A stretch of DNA of 64,000 nucleotides from an uncultured bacterium (GTDB taxonomy: Bacteria > Hydrothermota > UBA3072 > B12-G15). A model generated the notes under the pieces. The model saw only the letters and a program-made list of their open reading frames with translations. It made no database searches and had not been told where the DNA came from. Shown in pieces: positions 11,577 through 44,897 of the stretch. The position numbers and the translations under genes are program-made. Position 1 is the first letter of the stretch, and the number at the start of each line of letters is the position of its first letter. The stretch lies in the NCBI GenBank assembly GCA_965612735.1, contig CBFDSV010000005.1, positions 866-64,865 of the forward strand. Direction: 5' to 3'.

Positions 11577-12920
11577 ATGAAGGAATATGATGTTGTTATA
11601 GTGGGTGGTGGTCCAGCAGGGCTCACCACTGGAATTTCGGCAAGGAACACCTATCCTGACAAAAAAATAGCACTCATCAGGAAGGAAGAGATTGCCATGA
11701 TTCCATGCGGAATTCCCTACACAATCCACACACTTGAAAAGGTTGAAGATGACATACTTCCAGATGCACCAATCAACAAAAACAACATTGACCTGATTAT
11801 TGACAGGGTTGTGAATGCCAGTGACCACAGTCTTGAACTCGCTTCCGGTGAAAAGATAACATTCAGAAAACTTGTTATTGCCACAGGTTCAGTCCCCTTT
11901 ACCCCTCCCATACCAGGCATTGATAAGAAGAATGTATGGTTTGTTAAGAAGGAGAAAAACTACCTTGAGAAGATGAAAAAGGGGCTGAATGAGGCAGGAA
12001 CTGTTATCATTATAGGTGGTGGATTTATCGGGATTGAGGTGGCAGATGAACTTCTCAAAGCAGGAAAAAAGGTTTATGTGATTGAAAAACTTCCATCCCT
12101 CCTTCCACTTGCAATGGACAGAGAATTCGGTGATATGGCAAAAGAGGTTCTCACTTCTCTGGGTGCAGAAGTCCTTACAGGGGTTACTGTTAAGGAGATA
12201 ACAGGTGCAGAATCTGTTGATGGTGTCCTGCTTGACAATGATAAAAAAATCGCCGGAGATGCAATTGTTATTGCTGCTGGCTACAGACCAAACCTTGAAC
12301 TTGCAAAAGATTTAGAACTGAAGATAGAAGAAAGATATGGAATAGTTGTGGATGAATATCTGAGAACAAGCAGGGAGGATATTTTTGCAGTTGGTGATTG
12401 TGCAGTAAAGAGATGCTGCTTCACAGGAGAATATTCTAAAATCATGCTTGCTTCAACTGCAATGGCTCAGGGAAGGCTTGCAGGCTCAAATCTCTTTGAA
12501 ATAAAGGTAATAAAGGGATTCCTTGGAACACTTGGAACATTCTCCACAAAGATTGGAAACACTGCATTTGGTGTTTCAGGCCTTACAGAGGAACAGGTAA
12601 AGAGAATTGGCATTGATTATGTGGTGGGAATCAACGAAACCGTTGACAGACATCCCGGGAAACTACCGGGTGCCTCAAAGATTTACACAAAACTCATATA
12701 CTCAAAATACTCTCACATCCTGCTGGGAGCACAGGTAAAGGGTGGAGACTCTGTTGGTGAACTTGTGAACATGTATTCAGTCATAATCCAGAACAGGATG
12801 ACGGATATGGAAATTGATACACTCCAGATAGGAACACATCCCCTCCTCACATCCTCACCAATAGCATACCCGGTTATAAATGCAACTGTAAATGCCATCC
12901 TGAAATGGTATAAAGGGTAA
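11577..12920 (+). CDS. FAD-dependent pyridine nucleotide-disulfide oxidoreductase of the NADH oxidase / CoA-disulfide reductase (possibly NSR-like) family.
   Basis: N-terminal VVIVGGGPAGLT dinucleotide fold. Single redox Cys in AMIPCGIPY (the CoADR/Nox SxxxCGxPY active-site context). A second GGGFIGIE NAD fold. 447 aa. Confidence 0.75.
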   Translation: MKEYDVVIVGGGPAGLTTGISARNTYPDKKIALIRKEEIAMIPCGIPYTIHTLEKVEDDILPDAPINKNNIDLIIDRVVNASDHSLELASGEKITFRKLVIATGSVPFTPPIPGIDKKNVWFVKKEKNYLEKMKKGLNEAGTVIIIGGGFIGIEVADELLKAGKKVYVIEKLPSLLPLAMDREFGDMAKEVLTSLGAEVLTGVTVKEITGAESVDGVLLDNDKKIAGDAIVIAAGYRPNLELAKDLELKIEERYGIVVDEYLRTSREDIFAVGDCAVKRCCFTGEYSKIMLASTAMAQGRLAGSNLFEIKVIKGFLGTLGTFSTKIGNTAFGVSGLTEEQVKRIGIDYVVGINETVDRHPGKLPGASKIYTKLIYSKYSHILLGAQVKGGDSVGELVNMYSVIIQNRMTDMEIDTLQIGTHPLLTSSPIAYPVINATVNAILKWYKG

Positions 12921-15275: not shown

Positions 15276-16994
15276 ATGAACTGGAGCAAGGCACTGATAC
15301 CCACCCTGAAGGAAGTTCCCAGGGAGGCGGTGAATAAAAGTCACATACTCCTTTTGAGGGGAGGATTCATAAGGGCCCTGACAAGTGGAGTGTATTCCTA
15401 TCTCCCACTTGGGTGGCGTGTTCTCAAAAAAATAATGAATATTGTGCGTGAAGAAATGGACAGGATTGGTGCACAGGAAGTCCTCCTTCCTGCACTCACA
15501 CCTTCCTCTATATGGGAAGAGACTGGAAGGTGGGATGAGTTTGGGGGAGAGATGTTCAGGCTCAAGGACAGAAAGGGAAGGGATTACGCACTCGCTCCAA
15601 CACATGAGGAGATTATGACTGAACTTGCAAGGAAACATATAAAATCCTACAGAGACCTCCCACAGATATGGTATCAGATACAGATTAAATACAGGGATGA
15701 GATAAGACCCCGTGGGGCAGTACTGAGGGCAAGGACATTCATAATGAAGGACTCCTACTCCTTTGATATAGACGAAGATGGGCTTGAAAAAAGTTATGCT
15801 CTTCACTACGATGCATACACAAGGATATTTGAAAGGGCATGGCTTAAGACCACGGTTGTCTCTGCATCAAGTGGACTTATGGGTGGGTCTGAATCCCATG
15901 AATTTATGGTTCTGTCTGATGCTGGAGAGGACGTGATAGTAAAGTGCCCGAAATGTGGATACTCTGCCAATTTAGAAGTGGCAAACCTCATTCCTTCACC
16001 GGTTGACTTTCCTTCAGGTGAACTGAAAAAGGTTCATACACCTGTTGGTGGAAGTGTCCGTGAAATATCAGAATTCCTCTCTGTGCCAGAACATCTTCTC
16101 ATGAAAAGCCTTTTATACATGGATGAGAACGGTTCTCCCTTCTTTGTGGTGATCAGGGGAGACTATGATGTTAATGAGGAACTCCTCTTCAAAAAATTCG
16201 GGAATGTCAGGCAGGCTGAACCTGATGAGATAAAAAACCTTACAGGTGCCTCTGCTGGATACATAAGCCCCATTGGCCTTGACATCCCTGTTTATGCAGA
16301 CAGAAGCCTTGAAAAGGGAAAAGGGCTTGTGAGTGGTGCAAATGAGGACTTCTACCACTATACAGGGATTGATATTGAGAGAGACCTGAAGATAAAAGAG
16401 TTTGTTGACATAAGAACACCACATGAAGGAGACCTCTGTCCCGAATGCAGAAGCAAGGTTGAAATCAAGAATGCAATTGAACTTGGTCATATATTCAAAC
16501 TTGGAACAAAGTATTCAAAGGCAATGGGTGCAACATTCACAGATGCGAATGGAAAATCAAAACCCATTGTTATGGGAAGTTACGGTATTGGTATTGAAAG
16601 GATTATGGCAACAGCAATTGAACTCTACAATGATGAAAATGGTATAATCTGGCCAGACCCAATCGCCCCATTTGATGTGCTTGTAATACCTCTTGACATT
16701 CGGGATTCAAAAGCCCTTGAAATATCCAGAAAAATGGTTAATATACTTGAGGAAACTCACGACGTCCTCTTTGATGACAGAGATGTAGGACCAGGGTTTA
16801 AGTTTAAGGACGCTGACCTTATTGGTATTCCAGTAAGGGTGGTTGTTGGTCCAAGGGGTCTCAAGGAAGGAAAGGTGGAGGTATCAAGAAGGGATGGGAG
16901 TGAAAAAATCATGATTGAACCTGATAGGGTTCAGGAGGTTGTTGAAAAACTATGGAAGAATGGGAAAGAATTAAGGAAGAAGTCAGGAGAATAG
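15276..16994 (+). CDS. proS: Proline--tRNA ligase (bacterial type with an inserted editing domain).
   Basis: 572 aa. Class II aaRS motifs, a YSFD motif region, and a C-terminal anticodon-binding domain collinear with ProS. Confidence 0.92.
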
Positions 16995-33478: not shown

Positions 33479-33525
33479 ACACAATATATAGTGGTAATTT
33501 TAAAAAAAACCACAATATATAGTTG
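33479..33525 (+). promoter_or_regulatory. Tandem NrdR boxes (ACACAATATATAGTGG at 33479..33494 and CCACAATATATAGTTG at 33510..33525), spaced 31 bp apart. Box 2 overlaps the -35.
   Basis: Each matches the NrdR consensus acaCwAtATaTwGtgt at 13-15 of 16 positions. Phasing of about 3 helical turns. Located immediately upstream of nrdD. Confidence 0.65.
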
Positions 33526-33551
33526 ACAATCCCTTGCTTTCCCTTTATACT
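33523..33551 (+). promoter_or_regulatory. Strong sigma70-like promoter of nrdD: TTGACA, 17 nt spacer, TATACT.
   Basis: Consensus -35, 5/6 at -10, optimal spacing. RBS AAAGGAGG lies 4 nt before the ATG at 33574. Confidence 0.6.
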
Positions 33552-33573: not shown

Positions 33574-36500
33574 ATGGAGCGCTTTATCAGGAAAAGGGAT
33601 GGTTCTATAGTTCCCTATGACAGGGCAAGGATTATAAGGGCTGTGTCTAATGCAATGAATGCTGTTGGATGTAAGGGGGAGGCGGACGAAATTGCAAAGT
33701 ATGTGGAGATTCTCCTTCATAGATGGTTTTTCAGAAAAGGCAGTATTCCACATGTTGAAGAGATACAGGATATTGTTGAGAGAACCCTTATGGAAAAAGG
33801 CTACCCTGAGGTTGCAAAGGCCTATATTCTGTACAGGCAGAAAAGAAAAGAAGCACGGGATATCAAATCCACTGTTGAGGAAGCAGAAAACCTGATAGAG
33901 CAATATATAGCCCGTTCTGATTGGAGGGTAAAGGAAAATTCAAACATGAACTTCTCTCTTCAGGGTATGAACTTTTATATCTCATCCTCCATTACTGCAA
34001 GATACTGGCTTAATAGGATATACACAGAGGATATTAAAAGGGCCCACGATGATGGAGACTTCCATATCCACGACCTCGGGCTTCTTTCAGTTTACACTTA
34101 TTATGGCAAGGAAGTGGTGATTGTTAAAGACAGTGAGGGTATAAAACTTATCTCTTTTGAAGACCTTTACAACTCCTGCAATACTCAGGAGAAGCTGCTT
34201 AATGAAAGGGACGGCGCATATGCCAAGTATCCTGTTGATATTTATGTTTTGGATAAGGACGGCTGGACAAAGGTGAAGAGGATAGTGAAGAAGAAGAAAG
34301 ATAGATACATGCGATTTCTGAAAAACAGGGGTGGCAGGAGTGTGATTGTTACAGACAACCATCCCATAATCACCAGAAACGGTGAAAGGATGGCAAAAGA
34401 CGTTCAAATCCAGAAAGATGAAACATTTACAGTAGATATCCCTGCCCTTTTGAAGGATGAAAATCTTTTTGAAGAAAAGGAAATTGACCTTCTTCAGGAG
34501 ATAAAAAAATACAACTTTGAAGAGGAAATCCGGGAAAAAATCTATTTCAATGGTTTTCATATAAGTGAGATTGAAAATACCAGTGAAGACGGTTACATTC
34601 ATACACTTACTCAGTCTTTTCCAGGAAAAATTCCCTTGACTGAAGAACTTGGATACCTGATAGGGTTTATTCTGGCTGAAGGTTACCTTTCATACGATGA
34701 GAAGGCTCCGAGGACCGTCACAGTATCCCAGAAAGAAAGGGATATCCTTGCAAAGATAAACAAAACACTGGTTAAACTTGGCATCCCTGGTTGTATTAAT
34801 CGGAGAGAAGACCATAACGTTTATGAACTTGTTGTGAAAAATGTATTCTTCAGGTTTCTATTAGAAAAGGTCTTCGGGATAAGACCTGGAGCCAGGCATA
34901 AAACCCTACCGGTAAGAATTCTTCACTACGGTAAAGAATTTATTAAAGGTTTAATCGCGGGATTTATTGATGGTGACGGTTCTATAAGTTCTTCAAAAAC
35001 CACCATTGACGTAAGGATTTCCTCCAGAGCACTCCTTGAACAGATGGCATATCTTATGACTTTTCTTGGTATTACACCACGAGACAGAAATCTTGAAGGT
35101 GCTGGCAGCGTCAGATTTTATAAAGGGAGGGAGATACACCAAAACTTTCCCTTATATGGGCTCTCCTTTAGAAAAACAGATGTAGAACTCCCCTCTCAGA
35201 TCTTTCAAAAGGCTGAAAGGTCATCCAAGGCATGGCACGATGAGGATAGAAATGCCTGGCACATTGTTCTCAATAACGAAAAAACAGAAATTCCTGATGA
35301 TGTGATTTATGATATTACAACAGAGTCATCTACATTGATTGTTAATGGCATGTGGAATCATAATTGTGTGGGGTGGGACTTGGAGGCACTTCTCAGAAGG
35401 GGATTTGGTGGAGTTGCAGGAAAGATTGAATCAAGACCTCCAAGACACCTTAGAACTGCACTTGGACAGATGGTGAATTTCTTCTACACCCTACAGGGAG
35501 AGGCAGCAGGTGCACAGGCATTCTCCAATTTCACAACCTATCTTGCTCCTTTTATTCGGTACGACGGGCTTGATAGAAAGGGTGTGAAACAGGCACTCCA
35601 GGAATTTCTCTTCAATGTTAATGTGGCTACAAGGTCTGGATTCCAGACACCATTCACCAATATCACCATGGACCTTGAACCACCAGAAAATCTCAAGAAC
35701 AAAAATGTCATAATTGGTGGTGAAGAAAAGGGTGAAACCTATGGTGAGTTCCATGAAGAGATGGACCTCCTGAATGATGTATTTGCTGAGGTAATGATGG
35801 AGGGTGATGCCAAACAGAGGATATTTACATTCCCCATACCTACATACAATATCACTAAGGACTTTGACTGGAAGAATGAGAAACTGAAGAGTCTCTGGGA
35901 GATGACTGCAAAATTTGGTATCCCCTATTTTGCCAACTTTGTCCATTCTGATATGAAACCAGAGGATGCAAGGAGTATGTGCCCAATTCACGGAGACGAG
36001 ATGGTGCTTATCCGTTCAAAAAGGGGAAGGGGGCTTGAATACTCCTGCATCAGGAACATTGTGGAAGGTCATGCAAAAGAGAACACGTATGAAATATTCA
36101 GTCACGGGAAATTCGTCAGGGGAAGATTCAATAGGTTCCCTAATCAGGAGATGATACAAGTGGAACTTGCTAATGGACACACCTTAGTTATCTCAAAAAC
36201 ACATATAAACTTTGTAATGAGGAGCAGGGATTCAGAAATTGAAGAACTTACAGGTGCTGAACTAAAACCTGGCATGTTTCTTCCTTATTCCTTGAAAGCC
36301 TACAATGGTAAAGGGGGAAATAGAGACCTGGGATTTTTTGTTGGGGCATATGCTGGAGACGGCTCTTTTGATAACGACAAAACAGTGGTCTTTTCGTTGA
36401 ATAAAGACGACCGTGTACTGAGAGAGGAACTTATAAGAATAAGTGAAAAATACTTTGGGGCACACTATTCTATTATCGAACCTGAGGGGAAAGGGCTTCT

Positions 36501-37938
36501 CTCTCTCAGGATTCATTCAAAGGCAGCGGTTGGCCTTTGCAAAGACTTCGTGGAGGCCAAAGGAAGAGATAAGCACTACACAGCCAGAGTCTTCGGGATG
36601 AGTAAAGAATTTAGATGGGGGGTGATTGAAGGACATTTAGCTACTGACGGCGGGACAAGAAACCGTATTTATACTTCTTCTCTAAAAATGGTTCAGACCC
36701 TGAACATGCTTTCTGCTTCTCTTGGAACCACTACATCAGTTAGAGTAGATGAAAGAGACAACAGATTAAGTGATAAGCCTGTTTACAGTGTTCTGATTTA
36801 TAGATTAAACAGGGAAAATTATGGGGACTTCTGGTTTAAAAAAGGAGATAAACTCTGGGTACGAATAAAAAGTATTACACCAAAAGGAATTTCTACAGGT
36901 TATTGCTTTGAGGTTGAAAATGATGAACCTATGTTTACTGTTGGAACCACAGGTATTCTGACCCATAACTGTAGACTCAGGTTGGACAACAGGGAGTTGA
37001 GAAAGAGGGGAGGAGGTCTCTTCGGGGCAAGCCCCATGACAGGCTCAATCGGTGTTGTTACAATAAATATGCCAAGAACAGGTTATCTATCACGGTCTGA
37101 AGAGGAATTTCTATCAAGGCTTGAACGATTGATGATACTGGCAAAGAACTCCCTGGAGATGAAGAGGAAGGTGCTTGAGGACCTGACAGAGAAGGGTCTC
37201 TATCCATACTCTCGGGTCTATCTATCAGAAGTAAAGAAGGCAACAGGTTCTTACTGGACAAACCACTTCTCAACCATAGGTCTTGTTGGAATGAATGAGG
37301 CATGCATGAACTTCCTTGGTGTTCCCATAACTGCAAAAGAGGGAAAGGAATGGGCAATAAAGATTCTCAATTTCATGAGGGAAAAACTTGCAGATTTTCA
37401 GGAGGAAACTGGAAACCTCTACAATCTTGAGGCAACACCTGCTGAGGGAACCTCATACCGTCTTGCAAAGAAGGACAAGGAGAGGTTTGCCTCCATCTTC
37501 ACACAGGGTGATTCTGATACACCATATTACACAAACTCAGTCCATCCACCTGTGTATGAGTTTGATGATATATATTCATTACTTGAACATCAGGATGACC
37601 TTCAGGTTTTATTCACAGGTGGAACAGTTGTACATCTTTTCCTTGGTGAACCTGTCCATGATTGGAAAATTGTCAGGGAACTTGTGAGAAGAATTGTTGA
37701 AAGATTCAGACTTCCCTACTTCAGCATTACGCCCACATTCTCCATATGCCCTGTTCATGGATACATACCTGGTGAACATCACATATGCCCGTATCCACAC
37801 ACAAAAGAAGAATTGGAAAGATTCGGGGTCATCACTGAACTAACAGAGGAAGAACTTTCAAGGTTACCAGAAAATGCCTACATTAAACCAGAGGACCCTG
37901 GAGGGACTTCCCTATTCCTTGACCTTGGGAATAAATAG
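33574..37938 (+). CDS. nrdD: Anaerobic ribonucleoside-triphosphate reductase catalytic subunit (class III RNR), with ATP-cone and two LAGLIDADG inteins. The glycyl-radical domain is absent (encoded separately downstream).
   Basis: ATP-cone at the N-terminus. HIHDL active-site finger. The two extein junctions, sequence-SM|CRLRL and NCVGWDL, align with the two catalytic Cys regions of E. coli NrdD. C-terminal YYTNS and a Zn-ribbon-like CPVHGY...HHICPY. The ORF track starts at 33523, but the Met with RBS is at 33574. Confidence 0.85.
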   Translation: MERFIRKRDGSIVPYDRARIIRAVSNAMNAVGCKGEADEIAKYVEILLHRWFFRKGSIPHVEEIQDIVERTLMEKGYPEVAKAYILYRQKRKEARDIKSTVEEAENLIEQYIARSDWRVKENSNMNFSLQGMNFYISSSITARYWLNRIYTEDIKRAHDDGDFHIHDLGLLSVYTYYGKEVVIVKDSEGIKLISFEDLYNSCNTQEKLLNERDGAYAKYPVDIYVLDKDGWTKVKRIVKKKKDRYMRFLKNRGGRSVIVTDNHPIITRNGERMAKDVQIQKDETFTVDIPALLKDENLFEEKEIDLLQEIKKYNFEEEIREKIYFNGFHISEIENTSEDGYIHTLTQSFPGKIPLTEELGYLIGFILAEGYLSYDEKAPRTVTVSQKERDILAKINKTLVKLGIPGCINRREDHNVYELVVKNVFFRFLLEKVFGIRPGARHKTLPVRILHYGKEFIKGLIAGFIDGDGSISSSKTTIDVRISSRALLEQMAYLMTFLGITPRDRNLEGAGSVRFYKGREIHQNFPLYGLSFRKTDVELPSQIFQKAERSSKAWHDEDRNAWHIVLNNEKTEIPDDVIYDITTESSTLIVNGMWNHNCVGWDLEALLRRGFGGVAGKIESRPPRHLRTALGQMVNFFYTLQGEAAGAQAFSNFTTYLAPFIRYDGLDRKGVKQALQEFLFNVNVATRSGFQTPFTNITMDLEPPENLKNKNVIIGGEEKGETYGEFHEEMDLLNDVFAEVMMEGDAKQRIFTFPIPTYNITKDFDWKNEKLKSLWEMTAKFGIPYFANFVHSDMKPEDARSMCPIHGDEMVLIRSKRGRGLEYSCIRNIVEGHAKENTYEIFSHGKFVRGRFNRFPNQEMIQVELANGHTLVISKTHINFVMRSRDSEIEELTGAELKPGMFLPYSLKAYNGKGGNRDLGFFVGAYAGDGSFDNDKTVVFSLNKDDRVLREELIRISEKYFGAHYSIIEPEGKGLLSLRIHSKAAVGLCKDFVEAKGRDKHYTARVFGMSKEFRWGVIEGHLATDGGTRNRIYTSSLKMVQTLNMLSASLGTTTSVRVDERDNRLSDKPVYSVLIYRLNRENYGDFWFKKGDKLWVRIKSITPKGISTGYCFEVENDEPMFTVGTTGILTHNCRLRLDNRELRKRGGGLFGASPMTGSIGVVTINMPRTGYLSRSEEEFLSRLERLMILAKNSLEMKRKVLEDLTEKGLYPYSRVYLSEVKKATGSYWTNHFSTIGLVGMNEACMNFLGVPITAKEGKEWAIKILNFMREKLADFQEETGNLYNLEATPAEGTSYRLAKKDKERFASIFTQGDSDTPYYTNSVHPPVYEFDDIYSLLEHQDDLQVLFTGGTVVHLFLGEPVHDWKIVRELVRRIVERFRLPYFSITPTFSICPVHGYIPGEHHICPYPHTKEELERFGVITELTEEELSRLPENAYIKPEDPGGTSLFLDLGNK
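34087..35364 (+). mobile_element. Intein 1 in nrdD (about 420 aa) with a LAGLIDADG homing endonuclease. N-terminal boundary is approximate (34087-34105).
   Basis: Intein block B (SVIVTDNHPIITRNG). LAGLIDADG blocks C and E (LIGFILAEGYL; LIAGFIDGDGSI). C-terminal block G ending ...LIVNGMWNHN followed by extein Cys (C|VGWDL). Confidence 0.7.
35980..36969 (+). mobile_element. Intein 2 in nrdD (330 aa) with a LAGLIDADG homing endonuclease.
   Basis: Begins CPIHGDEMVLI (block A, Cys1). Block B GHTLVISKTHINFV. LAGLIDADG motifs FFVGAYAGDGSF and RWGVIEGHLATDGG. Ends GILTHN followed by extein Cys (C|RLRLD). Confidence 0.8.
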
Positions 37939-37949
37939 CAGGAGGATTT

Positions 37950-38129
37950 ATGAAGGAGATAAAAAAACAAAATGAAAAAGCCGCATCAAAAAAAATCAGG
38001 GTTAAAGTTATAATGCCAGAGATTTATTCAAGGGTTGTTGGGTATTTCAGACCTGTCCAGAACTGGAACAGGGGAAAACAGAAGGAATTTCAGGAGAGGA
38101 GATACCTTAAGATTGATAAGGGGGTTTAG
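37950..38129 (+). CDS. Stand-alone glycyl-radical domain protein (59 aa) corresponding to the C-terminus of NrdD. Not in the supplied ORF track (below its 60-aa cutoff).
   Basis: Translation is MKEIKKQNEKAASKKIRVKVIMPEIYSRVVGYFRPVQNWNRGKQKEFQERRYLKIDKGV. It contains RVVGY (the RVxGY glycyl-radical motif) and a following NxGKxxE...R segment matching the NrdD C-terminus. GGAGG RBS 4 nt upstream. Its stop overlaps the probable nrdG start. Confidence 0.7.
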   Translation: MKEIKKQNEKAASKKIRVKVIMPEIYSRVVGYFRPVQNWNRGKQKEFQERRYLKIDKGV

Positions 38130-38802
38130 CGGAACCACCCTTATAGATTTTCCTGGAAGGATTGCATCCATTGTCTTTATTGGAGGATGCAATTTCAGGT
38201 GTCCCTTCTGCCACAATCCTGAACTCGTCCTTCCCGACCTAATTCAAAAACTCCCAATTCTTACTTCAGAAGAAGTGTTTGAAGAACTGCAAAACCGCAG
38301 GGGTTTTATTCAGGGTGTCACCATCACTGGTGGAGAGCCCCTTGTATGGGACAGCCTGATTGATTTTGTTAGGGGAATAAAATCACTCGGACTGGAAGTC
38401 AAAATAGATACAAATGGCTCCTTCCCTGAGAGGCTGAAGAAGTTAAAAATTCTGGTTGACTATGTTGCAATGGACATAAAATCCTCTCCTTCAAAGTACC
38501 ATCTTGCAACAGGCACTGATATAGACCTGGATAAACTCAAAGAATCCATAGCAATAGTCAAAACCTTCAGGGATTATGAATTCAGAACAACGGTTGTTCC
38601 AGGATTTGTTGACCAAGAGGACATTCATGAAATTGGAGAAATCATAAAAGGAGCAAAAAGGTATGTTCTCCAGCAGTTTAAACCAACAAAGGCAATAGAC
38701 CCGGATACATTGAGTATAATTCCATATACACTTGAAAGGCTTGAGGACTTCAGGGAAACAATCAAAGACTACGTTGATGAGGTCATTATAAGGTCATACT
38801 AA
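38113..38802 (+). CDS. nrdG: Anaerobic RNR activating protein (radical SAM). The ORF track extends it to a TTG at 38035; the TTG at 38113 fits homologues better.
   Basis: GGCNFRCPFCHN (CxxxCxxC radical SAM cluster) about 25 aa from the proposed start. GGEPL SAM-binding motif. Immediately downstream of nrdD and the glycyl-radical ORF. Confidence 0.8.
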   Translation: MIRGFSGTTLIDFPGRIASIVFIGGCNFRCPFCHNPELVLPDLIQKLPILTSEEVFEELQNRRGFIQGVTITGGEPLVWDSLIDFVRGIKSLGLEVKIDTNGSFPERLKKLKILVDYVAMDIKSSPSKYHLATGTDIDLDKLKESIAIVKTFRDYEFRTTVVPGFVDQEDIHEIGEIIKGAKRYVLQQFKPTKAIDPDTLSIIPYTLERLEDFRETIKDYVDEVIIRSY

Positions 38803-39378
38803 GTATCTGAGCAAAAGTTCCATTATAATGGCCGTTCCCACACCAACAGTAAAGTTGTCATCAAGTCTGATGGTTACCGCCTCTATCACTGTTGCACTGA
38901 ATGCACCTATAAGCATCACAACAAATGGAACATTGAGGGGTTTAAAAAATATAAAACCTATTACAAGGCATGTTATAAGGAAGGCAAGGCTACCTTCAAC
39001 ACTTTTACCTTTCAGAAATCTCAGCCTACCCCACCTAATACCAATGATTGTGGATGCAGTATCCCCGAAGAGAAGGTAGAGGAGTGAGAGGATTGCTACA
39101 CCCTTTGTGAACACTGCAATAATAAAGAATGTTGCAAGAAGATATGCAGTTGTACCCATTATAAATCCTGGCTCTTCTTTAAGGATACCCCTTGAATGGT
39201 CGTGGAGTGTTTTGTAAAAACCAGGGGCAACTTTTCTTATTACCTCAATAGGTGTCATGATTCCAAGAAGATAGGCAATTAGCATTTCAGCAGGTATCTT
39301 TGAGGGGGTGAAGGCATAAATCAGTGGGAATATTATCCCAACACCGATTCTATATGTCTTTCTTGCCCATATTTTCAT
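38794..39378 (-). CDS. Integral membrane CTP-transferase-family protein (CdsA / dolichol-kinase-like).
   Basis: LLFGDTASTIIGIRWGR...KGKSVEGSLAF resembles the PF01148 C-terminal signature. 194 aa, multi-TM. Confidence 0.5.
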   Translation of the reverse strand: MKIWARKTYRIGVGIIFPLIYAFTPSKIPAEMLIAYLLGIMTPIEVIRKVAPGFYKTLHDHSRGILKEEPGFIMGTTAYLLATFFIIAVFTKGVAILSLLYLLFGDTASTIIGIRWGRLRFLKGKSVEGSLAFLITCLVIGFIFFKPLNVPFVVMLIGAFSATVIEAVTIRLDDNFTVGVGTAIIMELLLRYLV

Positions 39379-39958
39379 GTCTCATCTCCCTTAATGCTTC
39401 CCTATTTGCAATTATTCCAACAATCAAAAAGATTATGAAGAAGGGCAATGCCCAGTGGATAAATCTTCTGTATATAAAGAGTGCAAGCCCCAGTGCAAAG
39501 ACAAAACCACTAATAACAACCACAGGATTCCTGGGTGCCCTCTGGATGGCAAAGTATGTTACTACAGCAATTGGGAAGAACCATGGAAAGAGGTATAAAA
39601 ACACCCCACCAGAGGTTGCCACACCCTTTCCACCTTTGAATCTTAAAAAGATGGACCAGCAGTGTCCAGCAACTGCAGCAATACCTGTAAGACCCACAAA
39701 GAAAGGATGGAGATTTAGGAAATCCCTTGCAATCCACATGGGTATAATTCCCTTCAGCATGTCAAGTGCCCATACAAGGAGACCATAGGGCTTCCCAACC
39801 TCCCTGAAAACATTTGCAGCACCAGGATTTCCAGAACCCACCTTCCTTATATCAATACCCTTTATCCGGGAAACAATTATGGCAAAGGGTATTGAACCAA
39901 ACAGGTAGCCCATAACAAGTGCCAGACCAATCTTCATATTAAAATTATACAGGAACAT
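39350..39958 (-). CDS. plsY: Glycerol-3-phosphate acyltransferase PlsY.
   Basis: GYLFGSIPFAIIVSR...GSGNPGAANVFR signature. 202 aa, 5 TM helices. Confidence 0.85.
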   Translation of the reverse strand: MFLYNFNMKIGLALVMGYLFGSIPFAIIVSRIKGIDIRKVGSGNPGAANVFREVGKPYGLLVWALDMLKGIIPMWIARDFLNLHPFFVGLTGIAAVAGHCWSIFLRFKGGKGVATSGGVFLYLFPWFFPIAVVTYFAIQRAPRNPVVVISGFVFALGLALFIYRRFIHWALPFFIIFLIVGIIANREALREMRHENMGKKDI

Positions 39959-41440: not shown

Positions 41441-41668
41441 ACATCCTGGCTGTACAGGGCATTTTACTCATCAAACCCGGACCCCTCAGGTTACTGGAAG
41501 TCTCCTGACCTGGATTTTGAAAGTACTCTCACGATGAACCCTTTCAACTTTCTGCAGATAATGTTCCATACAAGGTTCATTTACGAAAGGGAAGAAAGCC
41601 CTAATCTTCAGATAAAAGAGGTTCTATCCCTTGGGATAAACCTTCCCCTTTAAAAAGAATATTTACTC

Positions 41669-42928
41669 TTATAAAAATTCTCTCGGGTCTGTGATTCTAC
41701 CTGTTACTGCACTTGCAGCAACAGTATAAGGGGAGGCAAGGTATATAAATCCCTCTGGTGAGCCCATTCTGCCCTTAAAGTTCCTGTTGGCAGTGGAAAT
41801 GGCATTCTCTCCAGGCGCAAGCACACCCTCGTGGGCACCAAGGCATGGACCACATCCAGGGTTCAAAACCACTCCACCTGCATCAATCAGAACCTGCAAT
41901 ACCCCATCCTGAAGTGCCTCACTGTAAACCTCCCAGGATGCGGGAAGAATCAAAAGCCTTACACCCTTTGCAACCTTTCTCCCCTTTAATATCTCAGCGG
42001 CTGCCTTCAGGTCTTCAAGCCTTCCATTTGTGCATGTGCCAATAAGTGCCTCATGTACCTCTATACCATCTGCCTCTGACACCGGTTTTACGTTGTCAAC
42101 CGTGTGAGGAAAGGCAACCTGGGGCTCAATATTGGTTATGTCAAACTCCTTCACCTCTATGTAATCTGCATTATCATCTGGATAAACAGGGGAGTAGTCC
42201 TCCTTCTTCACCCTGTCAACAAAATCAAATGTCTTTTTGTCTGGAAGGCAAACACCATTCTTTGCACCCATCTCTGCTGCCATATTTGAGAGTACCATCC
42301 TTCCAGAAATGCTCATATTTTCAACAACACTTCCTGTAAACTCCACTGACCTGTAAAGTGCACCATCTGCACCAATAGACCCAATGATGTAAAGAACAAT
42401 GTCCTTGGGGGTGATACCCTTTCCTGGATTACCTTCAATCACAATCTTCATGCTGTCAGGTATCTTTATCCAGATTTCACCTGTTGCCCAGATGGAGGCA
42501 ACCTCGCTCCTTCCAATACCAGCAGAGAATGCACCGAATGCACCATAGGTTGTGGTATGTGAATCTGCACCGAATATAATCTTCCCAGGCAGGGCAAACC
42601 CCTTTTCAGAGAGCACCTGGTGGCAGATACCGCCTTCAGTATTGATGTCAAAAAAGAATTTTATACCCTGTTCATCAACAAATCTTCTTATTATCTGGTG
42701 ATTCTTTGCATATTTTTCTGATGCAGGTGGCACAACATGGTCTAAGACAATCACAATCCTTTCAGGGTCAAAGACCTTTTCACCACACATATCCTTGAAT
42801 GTCTTAATGATTGCATAGGAGTTATCATGGGACATTACAAAATCAGGCCTGACCATCACAATGTCACCTGGCTTCAAATCCTCACCCAGTCTCTCTGAAA
42901 AGAGTTTCTCAACAAAGGTCTTCCCCAT
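41669..42928 (-). CDS. leuC: Aconitase-family large subunit, 3-isopropylmalate dehydratase / homoaconitase LeuC-like (archaeal-type, 419 aa). No small subunit adjacent.
   Basis: N-terminal TFVEKL...PGDIVMVRPDFVMSHD. Fe-S ligand motifs GTCTNGR and NPGCGPCLG. Confidence 0.75.
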   Translation of the reverse strand: MGKTFVEKLFSERLGEDLKPGDIVMVRPDFVMSHDNSYAIIKTFKDMCGEKVFDPERIVIVLDHVVPPASEKYAKNHQIIRRFVDEQGIKFFFDINTEGGICHQVLSEKGFALPGKIIFGADSHTTTYGAFGAFSAGIGRSEVASIWATGEIWIKIPDSMKIVIEGNPGKGITPKDIVLYIIGSIGADGALYRSVEFTGSVVENMSISGRMVLSNMAAEMGAKNGVCLPDKKTFDFVDRVKKEDYSPVYPDDNADYIEVKEFDITNIEPQVAFPHTVDNVKPVSEADGIEVHEALIGTCTNGRLEDLKAAAEILKGRKVAKGVRLLILPASWEVYSEALQDGVLQVLIDAGGVVLNPGCGPCLGAHEGVLAPGENAISTANRNFKGRMGSPEGFIYLASPYTVAASAVTGRITDPREFL

Positions 42929-43474
42929 TTACTCCTCCTTGAATGGATGGAAGTTCACAAAGTCTGCAAAGTGAACAATCCAGCCCTCGGGAATCCTCTT
43001 GACAAAATCACCCTCCTTTGAGTGTGCAGCAATTATGTGGACAACCTGGTATGGAAGACCATTCTTGTATGCAAGTGCAGCACCTGAAACAGGATGCCTT
43101 ATTCTCTTTCCGAATTCACCAACGTGGATTGTATCCTCTTTTACATACTCAAGGAACTTCCCTACATCATGCAGGATTGCACCAGAAACAAGTATATCCC
43201 TCTCCATGGGTAGAGCATCCCCATATTCCTCTTTTAATGTATCAAAGATGGCAATAGCAGTCCTTGTTACTGCCCTTGTATGTTTGATAAGGGAGATTTT
43301 TGTTCCCTTGATGAGCATGGTGAACGGTATCTCCTCAAGGTCCTCCTCCTTCCAACCCCCAATCTGGATGGCCTCCTCAATGGTCTTAATGGTCTTTTCC
43401 TTCAGTTCACTATCCTTAATCTCCTCAACCTCAGGAAAGATTTTTCTTATATCCATTTCCCCTCCTTCTTTCAC
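42929..43474 (-). CDS. HD-domain phosphohydrolase.
   Basis: H...HD motif (GAILHDVGK) and a downstream His cluster (HIIAAHSKEGD). 181 aa. Confidence 0.6.
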   Translation of the reverse strand: MKEGGEMDIRKIFPEVEEIKDSELKEKTIKTIEEAIQIGGWKEEDLEEIPFTMLIKGTKISLIKHTRAVTRTAIAIFDTLKEEYGDALPMERDILVSGAILHDVGKFLEYVKEDTIHVGEFGKRIRHPVSGAALAYKNGLPYQVVHIIAAHSKEGDFVKRIPEGWIVHFADFVNFHPFKEE

Positions 43475-44457
43475 CCCCTCCCCTTTCTGGGGACGGAGGT
43501 TGACTTTTTGACATTTTTATCTCCTCGTTCCTTCTCCTTTTTAATACGTTCCTTTGCCCTTTTATAAATCTTTCCAAGTGATGAATATCTTAGATTTTTA
43601 AAGATGGGCATCCTGATAATATCACTATACTTCAATCCTGCTTCATCCCTCAACCTCACCAGCAATTCACCACGAAGCCTTTTTCCATTTCTTTTTGAGG
43701 TATCAATCTTTTCAACCTTTACACCAGACTCTTTTTCAAAATCCCTGATAACTTCGGAAGGTTCAACAAATGGATAATCCTTCTTTCTTCTCCGAAGATT
43801 TTCCCCGGTAGATTTTCTCCTGTTAAAACGTCTTTCAATCTCCCCAACAAACTCAGTATTCCCAATCACGTCTCCAAACCGTGTCCTCTTCACATCTGGA
43901 GATTTGTCCCTTGAAATCCAATCCATGAAAAGTGCGTCAAGTTTATCCTTCCCTCCAATGATACTTTCAACAAATTCATGGTCCACAAGGCCAGATGTTT
44001 TTTCAGAAAAGTAATCTGATATACTTGACCATATGTATTCGTATGGATTCTTAACAATTCCTGCACGAACAGGATTCAGTAAAACATATGTGAGTACCAT
44101 AATCATGTAGGGCTCATCCTGAATCAAAGTGGATTTGTACCTATCTTGAAAAACATACCCTTTCCCACCCTCAAGATATCTATAATATTTTCCAAAAGTA
44201 CCATTCAGATACCTCATAAAATCACCAAGCCTTCCTGAGGAATTCTGCAAAACAAGATGATAATGATTATCCATAAGGCAATATGCAAATATTTTTATAC
44301 GGTATTTATTCTTTGCCTCTGCCAACAGGTTGAGGAAATAGTTTTTGAGTTCTGTAGACAGAAAAACAGGTTCTCCCCTTAATCCACGGGAGACAATATG
44401 ATGATATGCACCTTCATAAGTTACACGGGCATGCCTCATAGAGAGGATTATAAACAA
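43471..44457 (-). CDS. REP-associated tyrosine transposase (RAYT; IS200/IS605-like Y1 HUH transposase) with a long basic C-terminal extension. Probable true start is the ATG at 44439.
   Basis: HHIVSRG and the HUH motif (MDNHYHLVL). Catalytic-Tyr region (FQDRYKS). Flanked by inverted REP copies. The C-terminal roughly 150 aa is K/R-rich with a possible DnaA-domain-IV-like HTH. Confidence 0.75.
   Translation of the reverse strand: MFIILSMRHARVTYEGAYHHIVSRGLRGEPVFLSTELKNYFLNLLAEAKNKYRIKIFAYCLMDNHYHLVLQNSSGRLGDFMRYLNGTFGKYYRYLEGGKGYVFQDRYKSTLIQDEPYMIMVLTYVLLNPVRAGIVKNPYEYIWSSISDYFSEKTSGLVDHEFVESIIGGKDKLDALFMDWISRDKSPDVKRTRFGDVIGNTEFVGEIERRFNRRKSTGENLRRRKKDYPFVEPSEVIRDFEKESGVKVEKIDTSKRNGKRLRGELLVRLRDEAGLKYSDIIRMPIFKNLRYSSLGKIYKRAKERIKKEKERGDKNVKKSTSVPRKGRG
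43489..43518 (+). repeat. REP-like element, copy 3 (+): GGGGACGGAGGTTGACTTTTTGACATTTTT. It forms the left inverted repeat flanking the RAYT gene.
   Basis: Same core as copy 1. Preceded by CCTCCCC, which can pair with GGGG(AC)GGAGG. The annotated 3' end of the RAYT ORF reads through it (…PRKGRG*). Confidence 0.7.
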
Positions 44458-44461
44458 ATTT

Positions 44462-44495
44462 GAGAAACTGTCAAATTGTCCACCTCCGTCCCCGG
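44462..44495 (-). repeat. REP-like element, copy 4 (- orientation), 5 nt upstream of the RAYT start. It is the right inverted repeat.
   Basis: Reverse complement reads CCGGGGACGGAGGTGGACAATTTGACAGTTTCTC. Preceded (on that strand) by CCCCCCC ATTT, giving a hairpin. Confidence 0.7.
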
Positions 44496-44506
44496 AAATG
44501 GGGGGG

Positions 44507-44534
44507 TTGATTTATTTTTGGGGTGGTGTAATAT
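44507..44534 (+). promoter_or_regulatory. Sigma70-like promoter (TTGATT, 16 nt spacer, TAATAT) that would produce a leaderless or near-leaderless mRNA for the EutN-like gene.
   Basis: The -10 ends 6 nt before the ATG at 44541. No Shine-Dalgarno is present. Confidence 0.4.
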
Positions 44535-44540
44535 ATTTCC

Positions 44541-44897
44541 ATGTTTATAGGTAAGGTCATAGGCACTGTATGGGCCACCAGAAAGGTGGAATCGTTGAGT
44601 AATTTGCGTTTCCTCCTGATTCAGCCTGTTGATATAGAGAGGGAGGCAACAAAAAGTGTGGTTGTTGCTGCAGACCCAATTGGTGCAGGGCCAGGTGAAA
44701 TGGTTCTTGTCTCCTTTGGCAGGGCTGCAAGGCTTGCATGTGGAAATGAAGACCTGACTATAGAAGCAGCAGTAATTGGCATTGTTGATTCTATTGACAT
44801 AAATGAAGTCTCAATAAAGAAGGGTGTTGAGGCCTTTGACCTCCTTCAAAGGGAACTTGAGAAAGCAGGGCTGAGAGTGAAGAAGAAAGATGAATGA
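44541..44897 (+). CDS. Bacterial microcompartment vertex (pentamer) protein of the EutN/PduN/CcmL family, with about 25 aa C-terminal extension.
   Basis: GKVIGTVWATRKVESLSNLRFLLIQP ... AADPIGAGPGEMVLVSFGRAARLA ... AAVIGIVDSI is collinear with EutN/PduN (PF03319). Confidence 0.7.
   Translation: MFIGKVIGTVWATRKVESLSNLRFLLIQPVDIEREATKSVVVAADPIGAGPGEMVLVSFGRAARLACGNEDLTIEAAVIGIVDSIDINEVSIKKGVEAFDLLQRELEKAGLRVKKKDE

Follow-up and report, generated by a model that had tools for sequence, protein, structure and literature searches.

The defining features of class 3 inteins are a non-nucleophilic residue 1 and, in the conserved intein blocks, Trp at B:12, Cys at F:4 and Thr at G:5, and their prototype, the MP-Be DnaB intein of mycobacteriophage Bethlehem, begins with Pro and needs the cysteine at F:4 (PMC2807308). 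Published work presents them as a monophyletic group that is linked to helicases and not easily derived from class 1 (PMC4031507, PMC7664689), and mutation of the Trp at B:12 blocks splicing in the classical members. Class 2, represented by KlbA, combines Ala1 with Ser at G:6 and Asp at F:4 in orthologues of a single host gene, while the class 1 LAGLIDADG inteins of archaeal VMA, ribonucleotide reductase (RNR) and polymerase genes (TliVMA, PhoVMA, PI-PfuI, PI-TkoII, PI-SceI) start with Cys or Ser. Thr1 was seen in no intein in InBase up to 2009, and the S1T mutant of the Tli pol-2 intein splices (PMC2807308). Inteins in RNR genes, several per gene included, are already well known, and the 2015 intein census lumps all RNRs together in a single group without mention of NrdD. 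Here we analysed nrdD, the gene for a class III RNR, in a 64,000-nt stretch of contig CBFDSV010000005.1 (assembly GCA_965612735.1, an uncultured bacterium), hereafter the window. The novelty lies in the first residues of the two inteins that appear to interrupt this gene, namely Thr in the one and Pro in the other.

We give a probability of about 0.7 to the reading that this nrdD was independently invaded by two LAGLIDADG inteins, of which intein 1 would splice by a class 1 route starting from Thr1 and intein 2 by a class-3-type route starting from Pro1, and that both were recently mobile. Both would presumably have to splice to give active NrdD. The gene starts with an ATG at 33574 behind a GGAGG ribosome-binding site and continues for 1454 codons without interruption, one more than the 1453 residues counted in a preliminary description of this DNA. 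The best 120 hits obtained with the whole protein are NrdD homologues of 1004-2404 aa, all of them intein-bearing, whereas the spliced extein as query retrieved mostly proteins without inteins. Three relatives serve as references: P0126, an intein-free homologue of 707 aa that is 97% identical to the window exteins; P0001, a 1130-aa protein on contig L001; and L045, an intein-free allele in a metagenome-assembled genome (MAG) of candidate division WOR-3, the nearest match in the genome collection with 97% amino-acid identity and the one by which the organism of the window is assigned to this group. The parts of the gene are as follows.

33574..37938, plus strand: nrdD large open reading frame (ORF), encoding a 1454-aa precursor; coordinates include the stop at 37936-37938
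33574..34095, plus strand: extein 1, aa 1-174; ATP-cone and N-terminal part of NrdD, ending HIHDLGLLSVY; colinear with P0126 1-174
34096..35364, plus strand: intein 1, aa 175-597 (423 aa), between Tyr174 and Cys598; absent from P0126 and L045
35365..35982, plus strand: extein 2, aa 598-803; begins with Cys598 (CVGWDL) and ends ARSMC803; colinear with P0126 175-380
35983..36969, plus strand: intein 2, aa 804-1132 (329 aa), between the cysteines of SMC/CRL (a slash marks the point of insertion); absent from P0001/L001, P0126 and L045
36970..37938, plus strand: extein 3, aa 1133-1454 and stop; begins with Cys1133 (CRLRLD); colinear with P0126 381-702

The junctions are set by the intein-free alleles. 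P0126 aligns to residues 1-174, 598-803 and 1133-1454 of the window protein, and P0001 keeps intein 1 at 99% identity and reads ARSMCCRLRLD at the site of intein 2, where the DNA of L001, 95-96% identical to that of the window, is short of exactly 987 nt (329 codons). Compared with the colinear orthologues P0126, P0001 and L045, both inserts are in-frame at exact codon boundaries, and the empty-site consensus taken from 50 homologues per site is H[IVL]HDLxxxxxYC.GW at the first site (50/50) and SMCCRL at the second (49/50). The true extein junctions are HIHDLGLLSVY/CVGWDL and ARSMC/CRLRLD. The preliminary description had placed two LAGLIDADG inteins at about residues 172-597 and 803-1132, and it was right about the inserts themselves and about their C-terminal junctions, N597/C598 and N1132/C1133, each of which is a His-Asn followed by Cys. 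It had proposed to align the spliced extein and to look for empty sites in related genomes; removal of the inserts does restore the extein alignment to P0126, and empty sites are present in P0126, P0001/L001 and L045. The N-terminal starts, however, were off by three residues and by one residue, and the junctions as written, HIHDLGLL/CVGWDL and ARSM/CRLRLD, would delete Ser-Val-Tyr and one Cys relative to the empty alleles. Starts at S172 and C803 were rejected, contradicted as they are by the intein-free alleles. Because these N-terminal junctions were wrong, canonical Ser1 and Cys1 inteins had been assumed and the Thr and Pro starts had stayed hidden.

The host protein belongs to NrdD according to family profile hidden Markov models (HMMs), which score above their cut-offs (NF006126, 964 bits with a cut-off of 548; TIGR02487, 462 bits with a cut-off of 326; PF13597, 549 bits) and match the product in three separated stretches, with an ATP-cone (PF03477) on aa 4-93 and with the conserved bottom-face and finger-loop cysteines present. 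Cys598 aligns with Cys125 of the Tyr124-Cys125 pair in Thermotoga maritima NrdD, which the structure paper on that enzyme equates with T4 Cys79 and Escherichia coli Cys175. The second Cys of SCCR is Cys1133, the equivalent of C290 in T4 and of C384 in E. coli; the same structure paper matches 328-SCCR-331 to T4 288-MGCR-291, with Cys290 as the radical cysteine. By this alignment, Cys598 is the reductive-half-reaction cysteine and Cys1133 the thiyl-radical cysteine, the latter being the +1 residue of intein 2 since this intein sits between the two Cys of the finger-loop SMC/CRL. As such, the earlier proposal that each insert lies directly before a catalytic cysteine serving as +1 nucleophile holds up, and so do the E. 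coli strings that it quoted, as in the K-12 NrdD sequence FNCMLIDL holds C175 and PMGCRSF holds C384.

Profile matches and structure models agree in identifying both inserts. Intein 1 matches LAGLIDADG_3 (E=1e-18, in two stretches), Hom_end and Intein_splicing (E=5e-5, below the gathering score), as well as the intein parts of models for intein-containing archaeal RpoA'', IF-2, PolII and Tes, and TIGR01445 aligns its profile positions 6-83 to intein 1 residues 6-93, which places Thr at position 1. Intein 2 matches Intein_splicing (PF14890, E=2e-5, below the gathering score) and LAGLIDADG_3 (22.8 bits, at the gathering score), and PF14528 matches both inteins. The paired LAGLIDADG motifs lie at nt 34648-34686 and 34951-34983 in intein 1 (LAEG/DGDG) and at nt 36328-36366 and 36616-36654 in intein 2 (AGDG/ATDG). 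AlphaFold2 (AF2) models built from family alignments reached a pLDDT of 90.0 for intein 1 and 90.6 for intein 2 with a pTM of 0.90, and the best Foldseek match to both in the PDB is the TliVMA intein (E=1e-22 for intein 1; E=1.5e-19 and a TM score of 0.74 for intein 2), the other top matches being PhoVMA, PI-TkoII, PI-PfuI and PI-SceI, all complete endonuclease-bearing inteins. In these models both inserts are predicted to fold as HINT plus LAGLIDADG inteins. The domain matches and the predicted folds bear out the block motifs and the double LAGLIDADG motifs reported in the preliminary description, and the HMM searches recovered the splicing domains whose lack, like an unrestored extein alignment, it had named as speaking against inteins. 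The two inserts share with the class 1 LAGLIDADG inteins of archaeal VMA, RNR and polymerase genes their architecture, their insertion at catalytic residues and a terminal His-Asn followed by Cys, and differ from them in residue 1. Given that the similarity between inteins 1 and 2 is confined to the LAGLIDADG motif, a duplication was rejected and independent acquisitions are indicated. Autocatalytic splicing and endonuclease-driven homing are proposed for them on indirect evidence, namely the alleles with different numbers of inteins and the clustered synonymous changes described below.

Intein 1 begins with Thr175 as residue 1, carries T260 to H263 in block B and Asp580 in block F, and ends in His596-Asn597. 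Its block A reads TYYGKEVV in the register of the canonical CLxGDTxV. At the same Tyr/Cys site (site a), 69/70 inserts in the hit list start with Thr-Tyr-[Tyr/Phe] after an invariant Tyr and end in His-Asn, the single exception, P0078, being a canonical Cys1...Gly-Asn intein. Thr at B:7, His at B:10, Asp at F:4 and the terminal His-Asn are invariant in the 70/70-member alignment of the family, and Thr1 after Tyr(-1) is kept in relatives of 25-32% identity within divergent NrdD subfamilies, an observation that comes from a word-indexed search with intein 1 which returned only 25 NrdD proteins, mostly partial, and on which Thr1 at 25% identity is based. What stands out is that Thr1 is invariant in a large natural family across bacterial and archaeal phyla; in Tli pol-2 it was engineered, and in the family of intein 1 it is the natural state. 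In the literature that we searched, no natural Thr1 intein has been reported since. Thr1 is allowed in principle as the first residue of a class 1 intein, and the most economical reading for intein 1, and the most likely one, is a class 1 pathway in which Thr1 would perform an N-O acyl shift.

Intein 2 has Pro804 as residue 1, Ser874 at B:7, His877 at B:10, Asn879 at B:12, Cys1111 at F:4 and Thr1130-His1131-Asn1132 at its end, and its block A reads PLAGDEKV in the register of CLxGDTxV. Site b consists of two adjacent insertion points, M/CC, which is occupied by canonical Cys1 inteins, and C/C, which is the type found in the window. All 60/60 C/C inserts in the hit list start with Pro and end in Thr-His-Asn, and Pro1, His B:10, Cys F:4, Thr G:5, His and Asn are invariant in 61/61 members of the family, with Asn (59) or Gln (2) at B:12. 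An exhaustive HMMER search of 1.84 billion cluster representatives (at 50% identity) with the full intein 2 sequence returned 298 relatives, the best 150 of which were examined and 118 of these had resolvable junctions; those at the C/C site are:

Pro1 with Cys F:4: 45
Cys1 with Cys F:4: about 58
Cys1 with Asp F:4: 5
Cys1 with Ser F:4: 1

A few further relatives within the same best 150 sit at M/CC or in other hosts, all with Cys1. Trp at B:12 was never seen among these representatives, which have N, Q or H, and a Pro1 member lacking Cys F:4 was found in 0/106 cases (the 61-member family plus the 45 representatives). The association of Pro1 with Cys F:4 (45 Cys for Pro1; 58 Cys and 7 D/S for Cys1) has a Fisher p of 0.04, or 0.0009 with the family added. 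In a neighbour-joining tree of 119 intein 2 relatives, a crude one, the Pro1 members form two blocks split by Cys1 members.

Neither intein would be able to take the textbook first step of Cys1 or Ser1, and in intein 2 residue 1, as Pro, cannot act as a nucleophile and departs from the Cys or Ser of class 1. In the most likely route for intein 2, of the class 3 type, a branched thioester would arise by attack of the invariant Cys1111 on the peptide bond between Cys803 and Pro804, the N-extein would then pass to Cys1133, Asn1132 would cyclise, and an S-N shift would restore the native Cys-Cys. With Pro1, Cys F:4, Thr G:5 followed by His-Asn, and Ser B:7/His B:10, intein 2 resembles the class 3 inteins of MP-Be DnaB, Msm/Mle DnaB and MchDnaB1, but it has no Trp at B:12, its +1 residue is Cys and not Ser or Thr, its host is NrdD and not a P-loop helicase or terminase, and its close relatives at the C/C site have Cys1. 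Overall, we consider it fairly probable that intein 2 works like a class 3 intein, without filing it among them. The only class 3 intein reported with Cys+1, Bvi IcmO, likewise combines a block F Cys with Cys+1, so that both branched intermediates would be thioesters in either case, but Bvi IcmO is a mini-intein of 142 aa with the full WCT set, whereas intein 2 has 329 aa, a LAGLIDADG endonuclease and no Trp. A phmmer search of the PDB with intein 2 gave no match, and a profile of its splicing domain gave weak matches to TFIIB mini-inteins and to the engineered gp41-1_WCT.

We tentatively extend this to the proposal that the C/C-site inteins represent a second origin of splicing through a block F cysteine, of the class 3 type and independent of the phage and helicase lineage, and that the Y/C-site inteins are a natural family with Thr1 as first nucleophile. 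As part of the second origin we propose a series from Cys1 with Asp at F:4, through Cys1 with Cys at F:4, to Pro1 with Cys at F:4, stages that are all still found in nature and all lack the class 3 Trp. With a Pro1/Cys F:4/Thr G:5 family of NrdD inteins that is devoid of this Trp and shares its site with Cys1 relatives, natural sequences become available for testing how the class 3 mechanism originated. In addition, Thr1 and Pro1 inteins would widen the splice contexts available to protein engineering, namely a Cys-Pro N-junction, Cys+1 and Tyr-Thr.

Several observations weigh against the two-route reading. Cys F:4 is common among the Cys1 relatives and is therefore a trait of the whole family, not specific to Pro1; B:12 is Asn or Gln in place of Trp; the profile search of the PDB with the intein 2 splicing domain found no classical class 3 DnaB intein at E<=10, so that kinship with class 3 is not shown by these searches, though common descent may still hold at such divergence; and the splicing chemistry of both inteins is deduced from sequence. 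Direct attack by Cys+1, as in class 2, could moreover be conceived for either intein. For intein 2 this would mean that Cys1133 attacks the Cys803-Pro804 bond itself and that the block F cysteine merely assists, which would agree with the Cys at +1, as in KlbA inteins, with the missing Trp and with the occurrence of Cys F:4 in Cys1 relatives, where it is not necessarily the first nucleophile. We regard this as unlikely, because class 2 needs Asp F:4 and has Ser G:6 whereas intein 2 has Cys F:4 and His G:6, and because no Pro1 member departs from Cys F:4. For intein 1, the corresponding proposal is that Thr175 is no nucleophile and that Cys598 attacks the Tyr174-Thr175 bond directly. Somewhat more can be said for it, as Cys stands at +1, the Asp F:4, Thr B:7 and His B:10 needed by class 2 are all present, and no natural Thr1 intein was recorded in InBase in 2009. 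It is nevertheless doubtful in our view, given that Thr is capable of an N-O acyl shift, that the S1T mutant splices, that G:6 is His and not the Ser of KlbA, and that Thr is kept strictly over 25-99% identity, never replaced by Ala or another small residue, which argues that its hydroxyl is used. Both window inteins share with KlbA the lack of a Cys1 or Ser1 nucleophile and the Cys+1, but the KlbA signature is found in neither (Thr1/His G:6/Asp F:4 in intein 1, Pro1/His G:6/Cys F:4 in intein 2, both in NrdD).

Two further explanations would do away with the unusual first residues or with splicing itself. Both inserts could be ordinary class 1 inteins with Ser172 and Cys803 as residue 1, chemically competent nucleophiles just upstream, of which Cys803 is invariant in the family. 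The products, HIHDLGLL-CVGWDL and ARSM-CRLRLD, would then lack Ser-Val-Tyr and one Cys that are present in the 97%-identical empty alleles and in 50/50 and 49/50 empty sites, and they would break into Tyr124-Cys125 and SCCR, both conserved active-site elements; moreover, insert 2 comprises 329 codons and not 330, and position 1 falls on Thr and Pro according to both the register of block A and the TIGR01445 alignment, which leaves this explanation hardly credible. Alternatively, one or both inteins may no longer splice and nrdD may be decaying, with another RNR elsewhere supplying the function, as the non-canonical first residues and the splicing-domain HMM scores under the Pfam gathering cut-off might suggest. 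Against this, the reading frame is open for 1454 codons, the catalytic block residues are invariant in 61-70 members across bacteria and archaea, Thr1 and Pro1 are fixed family-wide and are not private mutations, the codon changes that separate intein 1 of the window from that of L001 are 16 synonymous and 4 non-synonymous, an excess that fits purifying selection, and the promoter, the NrdR-like boxes, the glycyl-radical ORF and nrdG described below are intact. Decay is thus very improbable, and we retain two splicing inteins, with Thr1 and Pro1 respectively, as the preferred reading.

Inteins are frequent among the relatives of this protein. By intein number, the best 120 full-length hits divide into 68 with one, 32 with two, 15 with three and five with four, so that 52/120 carry 2-4 and the load of two, which the preliminary description had called uncommon, is not exceptional among them. 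The same pair of a Thr1 and a Pro1 intein occurs in nine other proteins, and up to four inteins are found per protein, e.g. in P0035 (2404 aa) and P0020 (2154 aa). The NrdD subfamily has at least 11 insertion sites, after spliced-extein residues 174, 220, 227, 268, 322/328, 363, 379, 380, 405, 540, 568 and 598, several of which host two unrelated intein types. Among the 116 closest exteins, 16 are interrupted by inteins (14%). The Thr1 intein was found in 41/80 species-representative loci, a count from a scan biased by its intein-derived search pattern, in Thermoplasmatota, Chloroflexota, Bipolaricaulota, Desulfobacterota, Bacillota, Saccharibacteria, Woesearchaeota and others.

In WOR-3, alleles that have no, one or two inteins exist side by side at a DNA identity of 93-97% and constitute a clean natural homing series. 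The differences between occupied and empty alleles cluster at the insertion sites. At site a, one 60-nt bin of the spliced extein DNA holds 13 differences between the occupied (window, L001) and the empty allele (L045), where the mean is ~4 per bin, and a stretch of 24 nt contains nine differences, eight of them synonymous (P=4e-5). At site b, seven synonymous differences in 16 nt separate the window from both empty alleles (Poisson P=7e-7), the codons being TGC/TGT AGA CTC AGG TTG in the window and TGT/TGC CGA CTT CGC CTG in the empty alleles. Such clusters at each site fit homing with co-conversion of the flanks, by which both inteins would have been mobile recently in this lineage. The same clusters could also arise from selection for endonuclease-resistant flanks, or from precise loss of an intein and not its recent gain, which would speak against recent mobility. 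The suggestion made earlier that these inteins may serve as markers of spread gains from the coexisting alleles and the clustered synonymous changes, since related genomes do carry empty sites. Divergence between the window gene and its counterpart in L001 (8001..11393) is a mosaic, with one difference in 522 nt of extein 1 and 45 in 969 nt of extein 3. Extein 1 together with the first ~970 nt of intein 1 has three differences in ~1500 nt, and a divergence of 3-5% is seen at the 3' end of intein 1 and in the exteins that follow it, which suggests a recombination breakpoint inside intein 1. The GC content is 0.39 in intein 1, 0.41 in intein 2 and 0.43 in the exteins.

The nrdD gene is split in another respect. 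The large ORF ends at 37938, before the glycyl-radical motif RVxGY, which is not on it; extein 3 includes no more than the first half of the Zn site, and its NF006126 match ends at profile position 653/684. The missing part follows on a small ORF.

37950..38129, plus strand: 59-aa ORF with the glycyl-radical loop EIYSRVVGYFRPVQNWNRGK and its own AGGAGG ribosome-binding site

This ORF encodes EIYSRVVGYFRPV and matches PF13597 at positions 534-560/562 (E=4e-8) and NF006126 at positions 652-682/684, resuming at the point where the large ORF breaks off. L001 shares this arrangement, as do 115/116 of the closest homologues and about 22/83 bacterial and archaeal loci, and it is also found beside a large subunit of 690 aa that has the same sequence as the one in the cultured Thermodesulfatator indicus. 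A split intein at the break was rejected, as there is no Cys or Ser start, no His-Asn end and no HINT-like length (a 40-aa tail and a 23-aa head). The arrangement resembles GrcA/YfiD in that the glycyl-radical loop is on a polypeptide of its own, but GrcA/YfiD backs up an intact pyruvate formate-lyase (PFL), whereas the nrdD large ORF is without the loop, which would make the small protein an obligate subunit. According to a 2026 review of glycyl radical enzymes, formate lyases are the only ones with known small spare-part proteins, and an obligate two-piece class III RNR may thus be undescribed so far. The split NrdA of Aeromonas phage Aeh1 is a precedent for a split RNR gene that is still functional. 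The split nrdD architecture merits a follow-up of its own.

The remaining features of the locus lie immediately upstream and downstream of these two ORFs.

33479..33494, plus strand: NrdR-box-like palindrome 1, ACACAATATATAGTGG, one mismatch to ACACWATATATWGTGT
33510..33525, plus strand: NrdR-box-like palindrome 2, three mismatches, overlapping the -35 hexamer, 31 bp from box 1
33523..33551, plus strand: sigma-70-like promoter TTGACA-17-TATACT, 11/12 consensus positions, 22 nt upstream of the ATG, a consensus match only
38113..38802, plus strand: nrdG-like activase (radical SAM), with a probable TTG start that overlaps the end of the small ORF; Radical_SAM E=2e-22, Fer4_12 E=8e-11

The palindromes at 33479..33494 and 33510..33525, which we assign to NrdR by the published consensus, have no further match anywhere in the 64-kb window, and nrdD follows directly downstream of the pair. 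Their number by itself is not significant, as two or more matches occurred in 31/100 shuffles, and it is the position and spacing of the pair that make it noteworthy and suggestive of NrdR control. The nrdG-like gene is the counterpart of a 229-aa gene in L001. The best explanation for the locus is a putative NrdR-regulated nrdD-nrdG operon of a candidate division WOR-3 bacterium.

Beyond nrdG, ~1 kb of the window directly downstream (~38883..39874), covering the minus-strand ORFs 38794..39378 and 39350..39958, is missing in the 95%-identical contig L001, where the corresponding point is 12322..12333. The two contigs are also rearranged elsewhere, in that L001 1-4768 matches window 58063-53296 in inverted orientation. 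In addition, a gene for a Y1 transposase of the IS200/IS605 type (PF01797) lies at 15851..16825 in L001, corresponding to about 43450..44440 of the window, within a block that is colinear with window 41570..44603.

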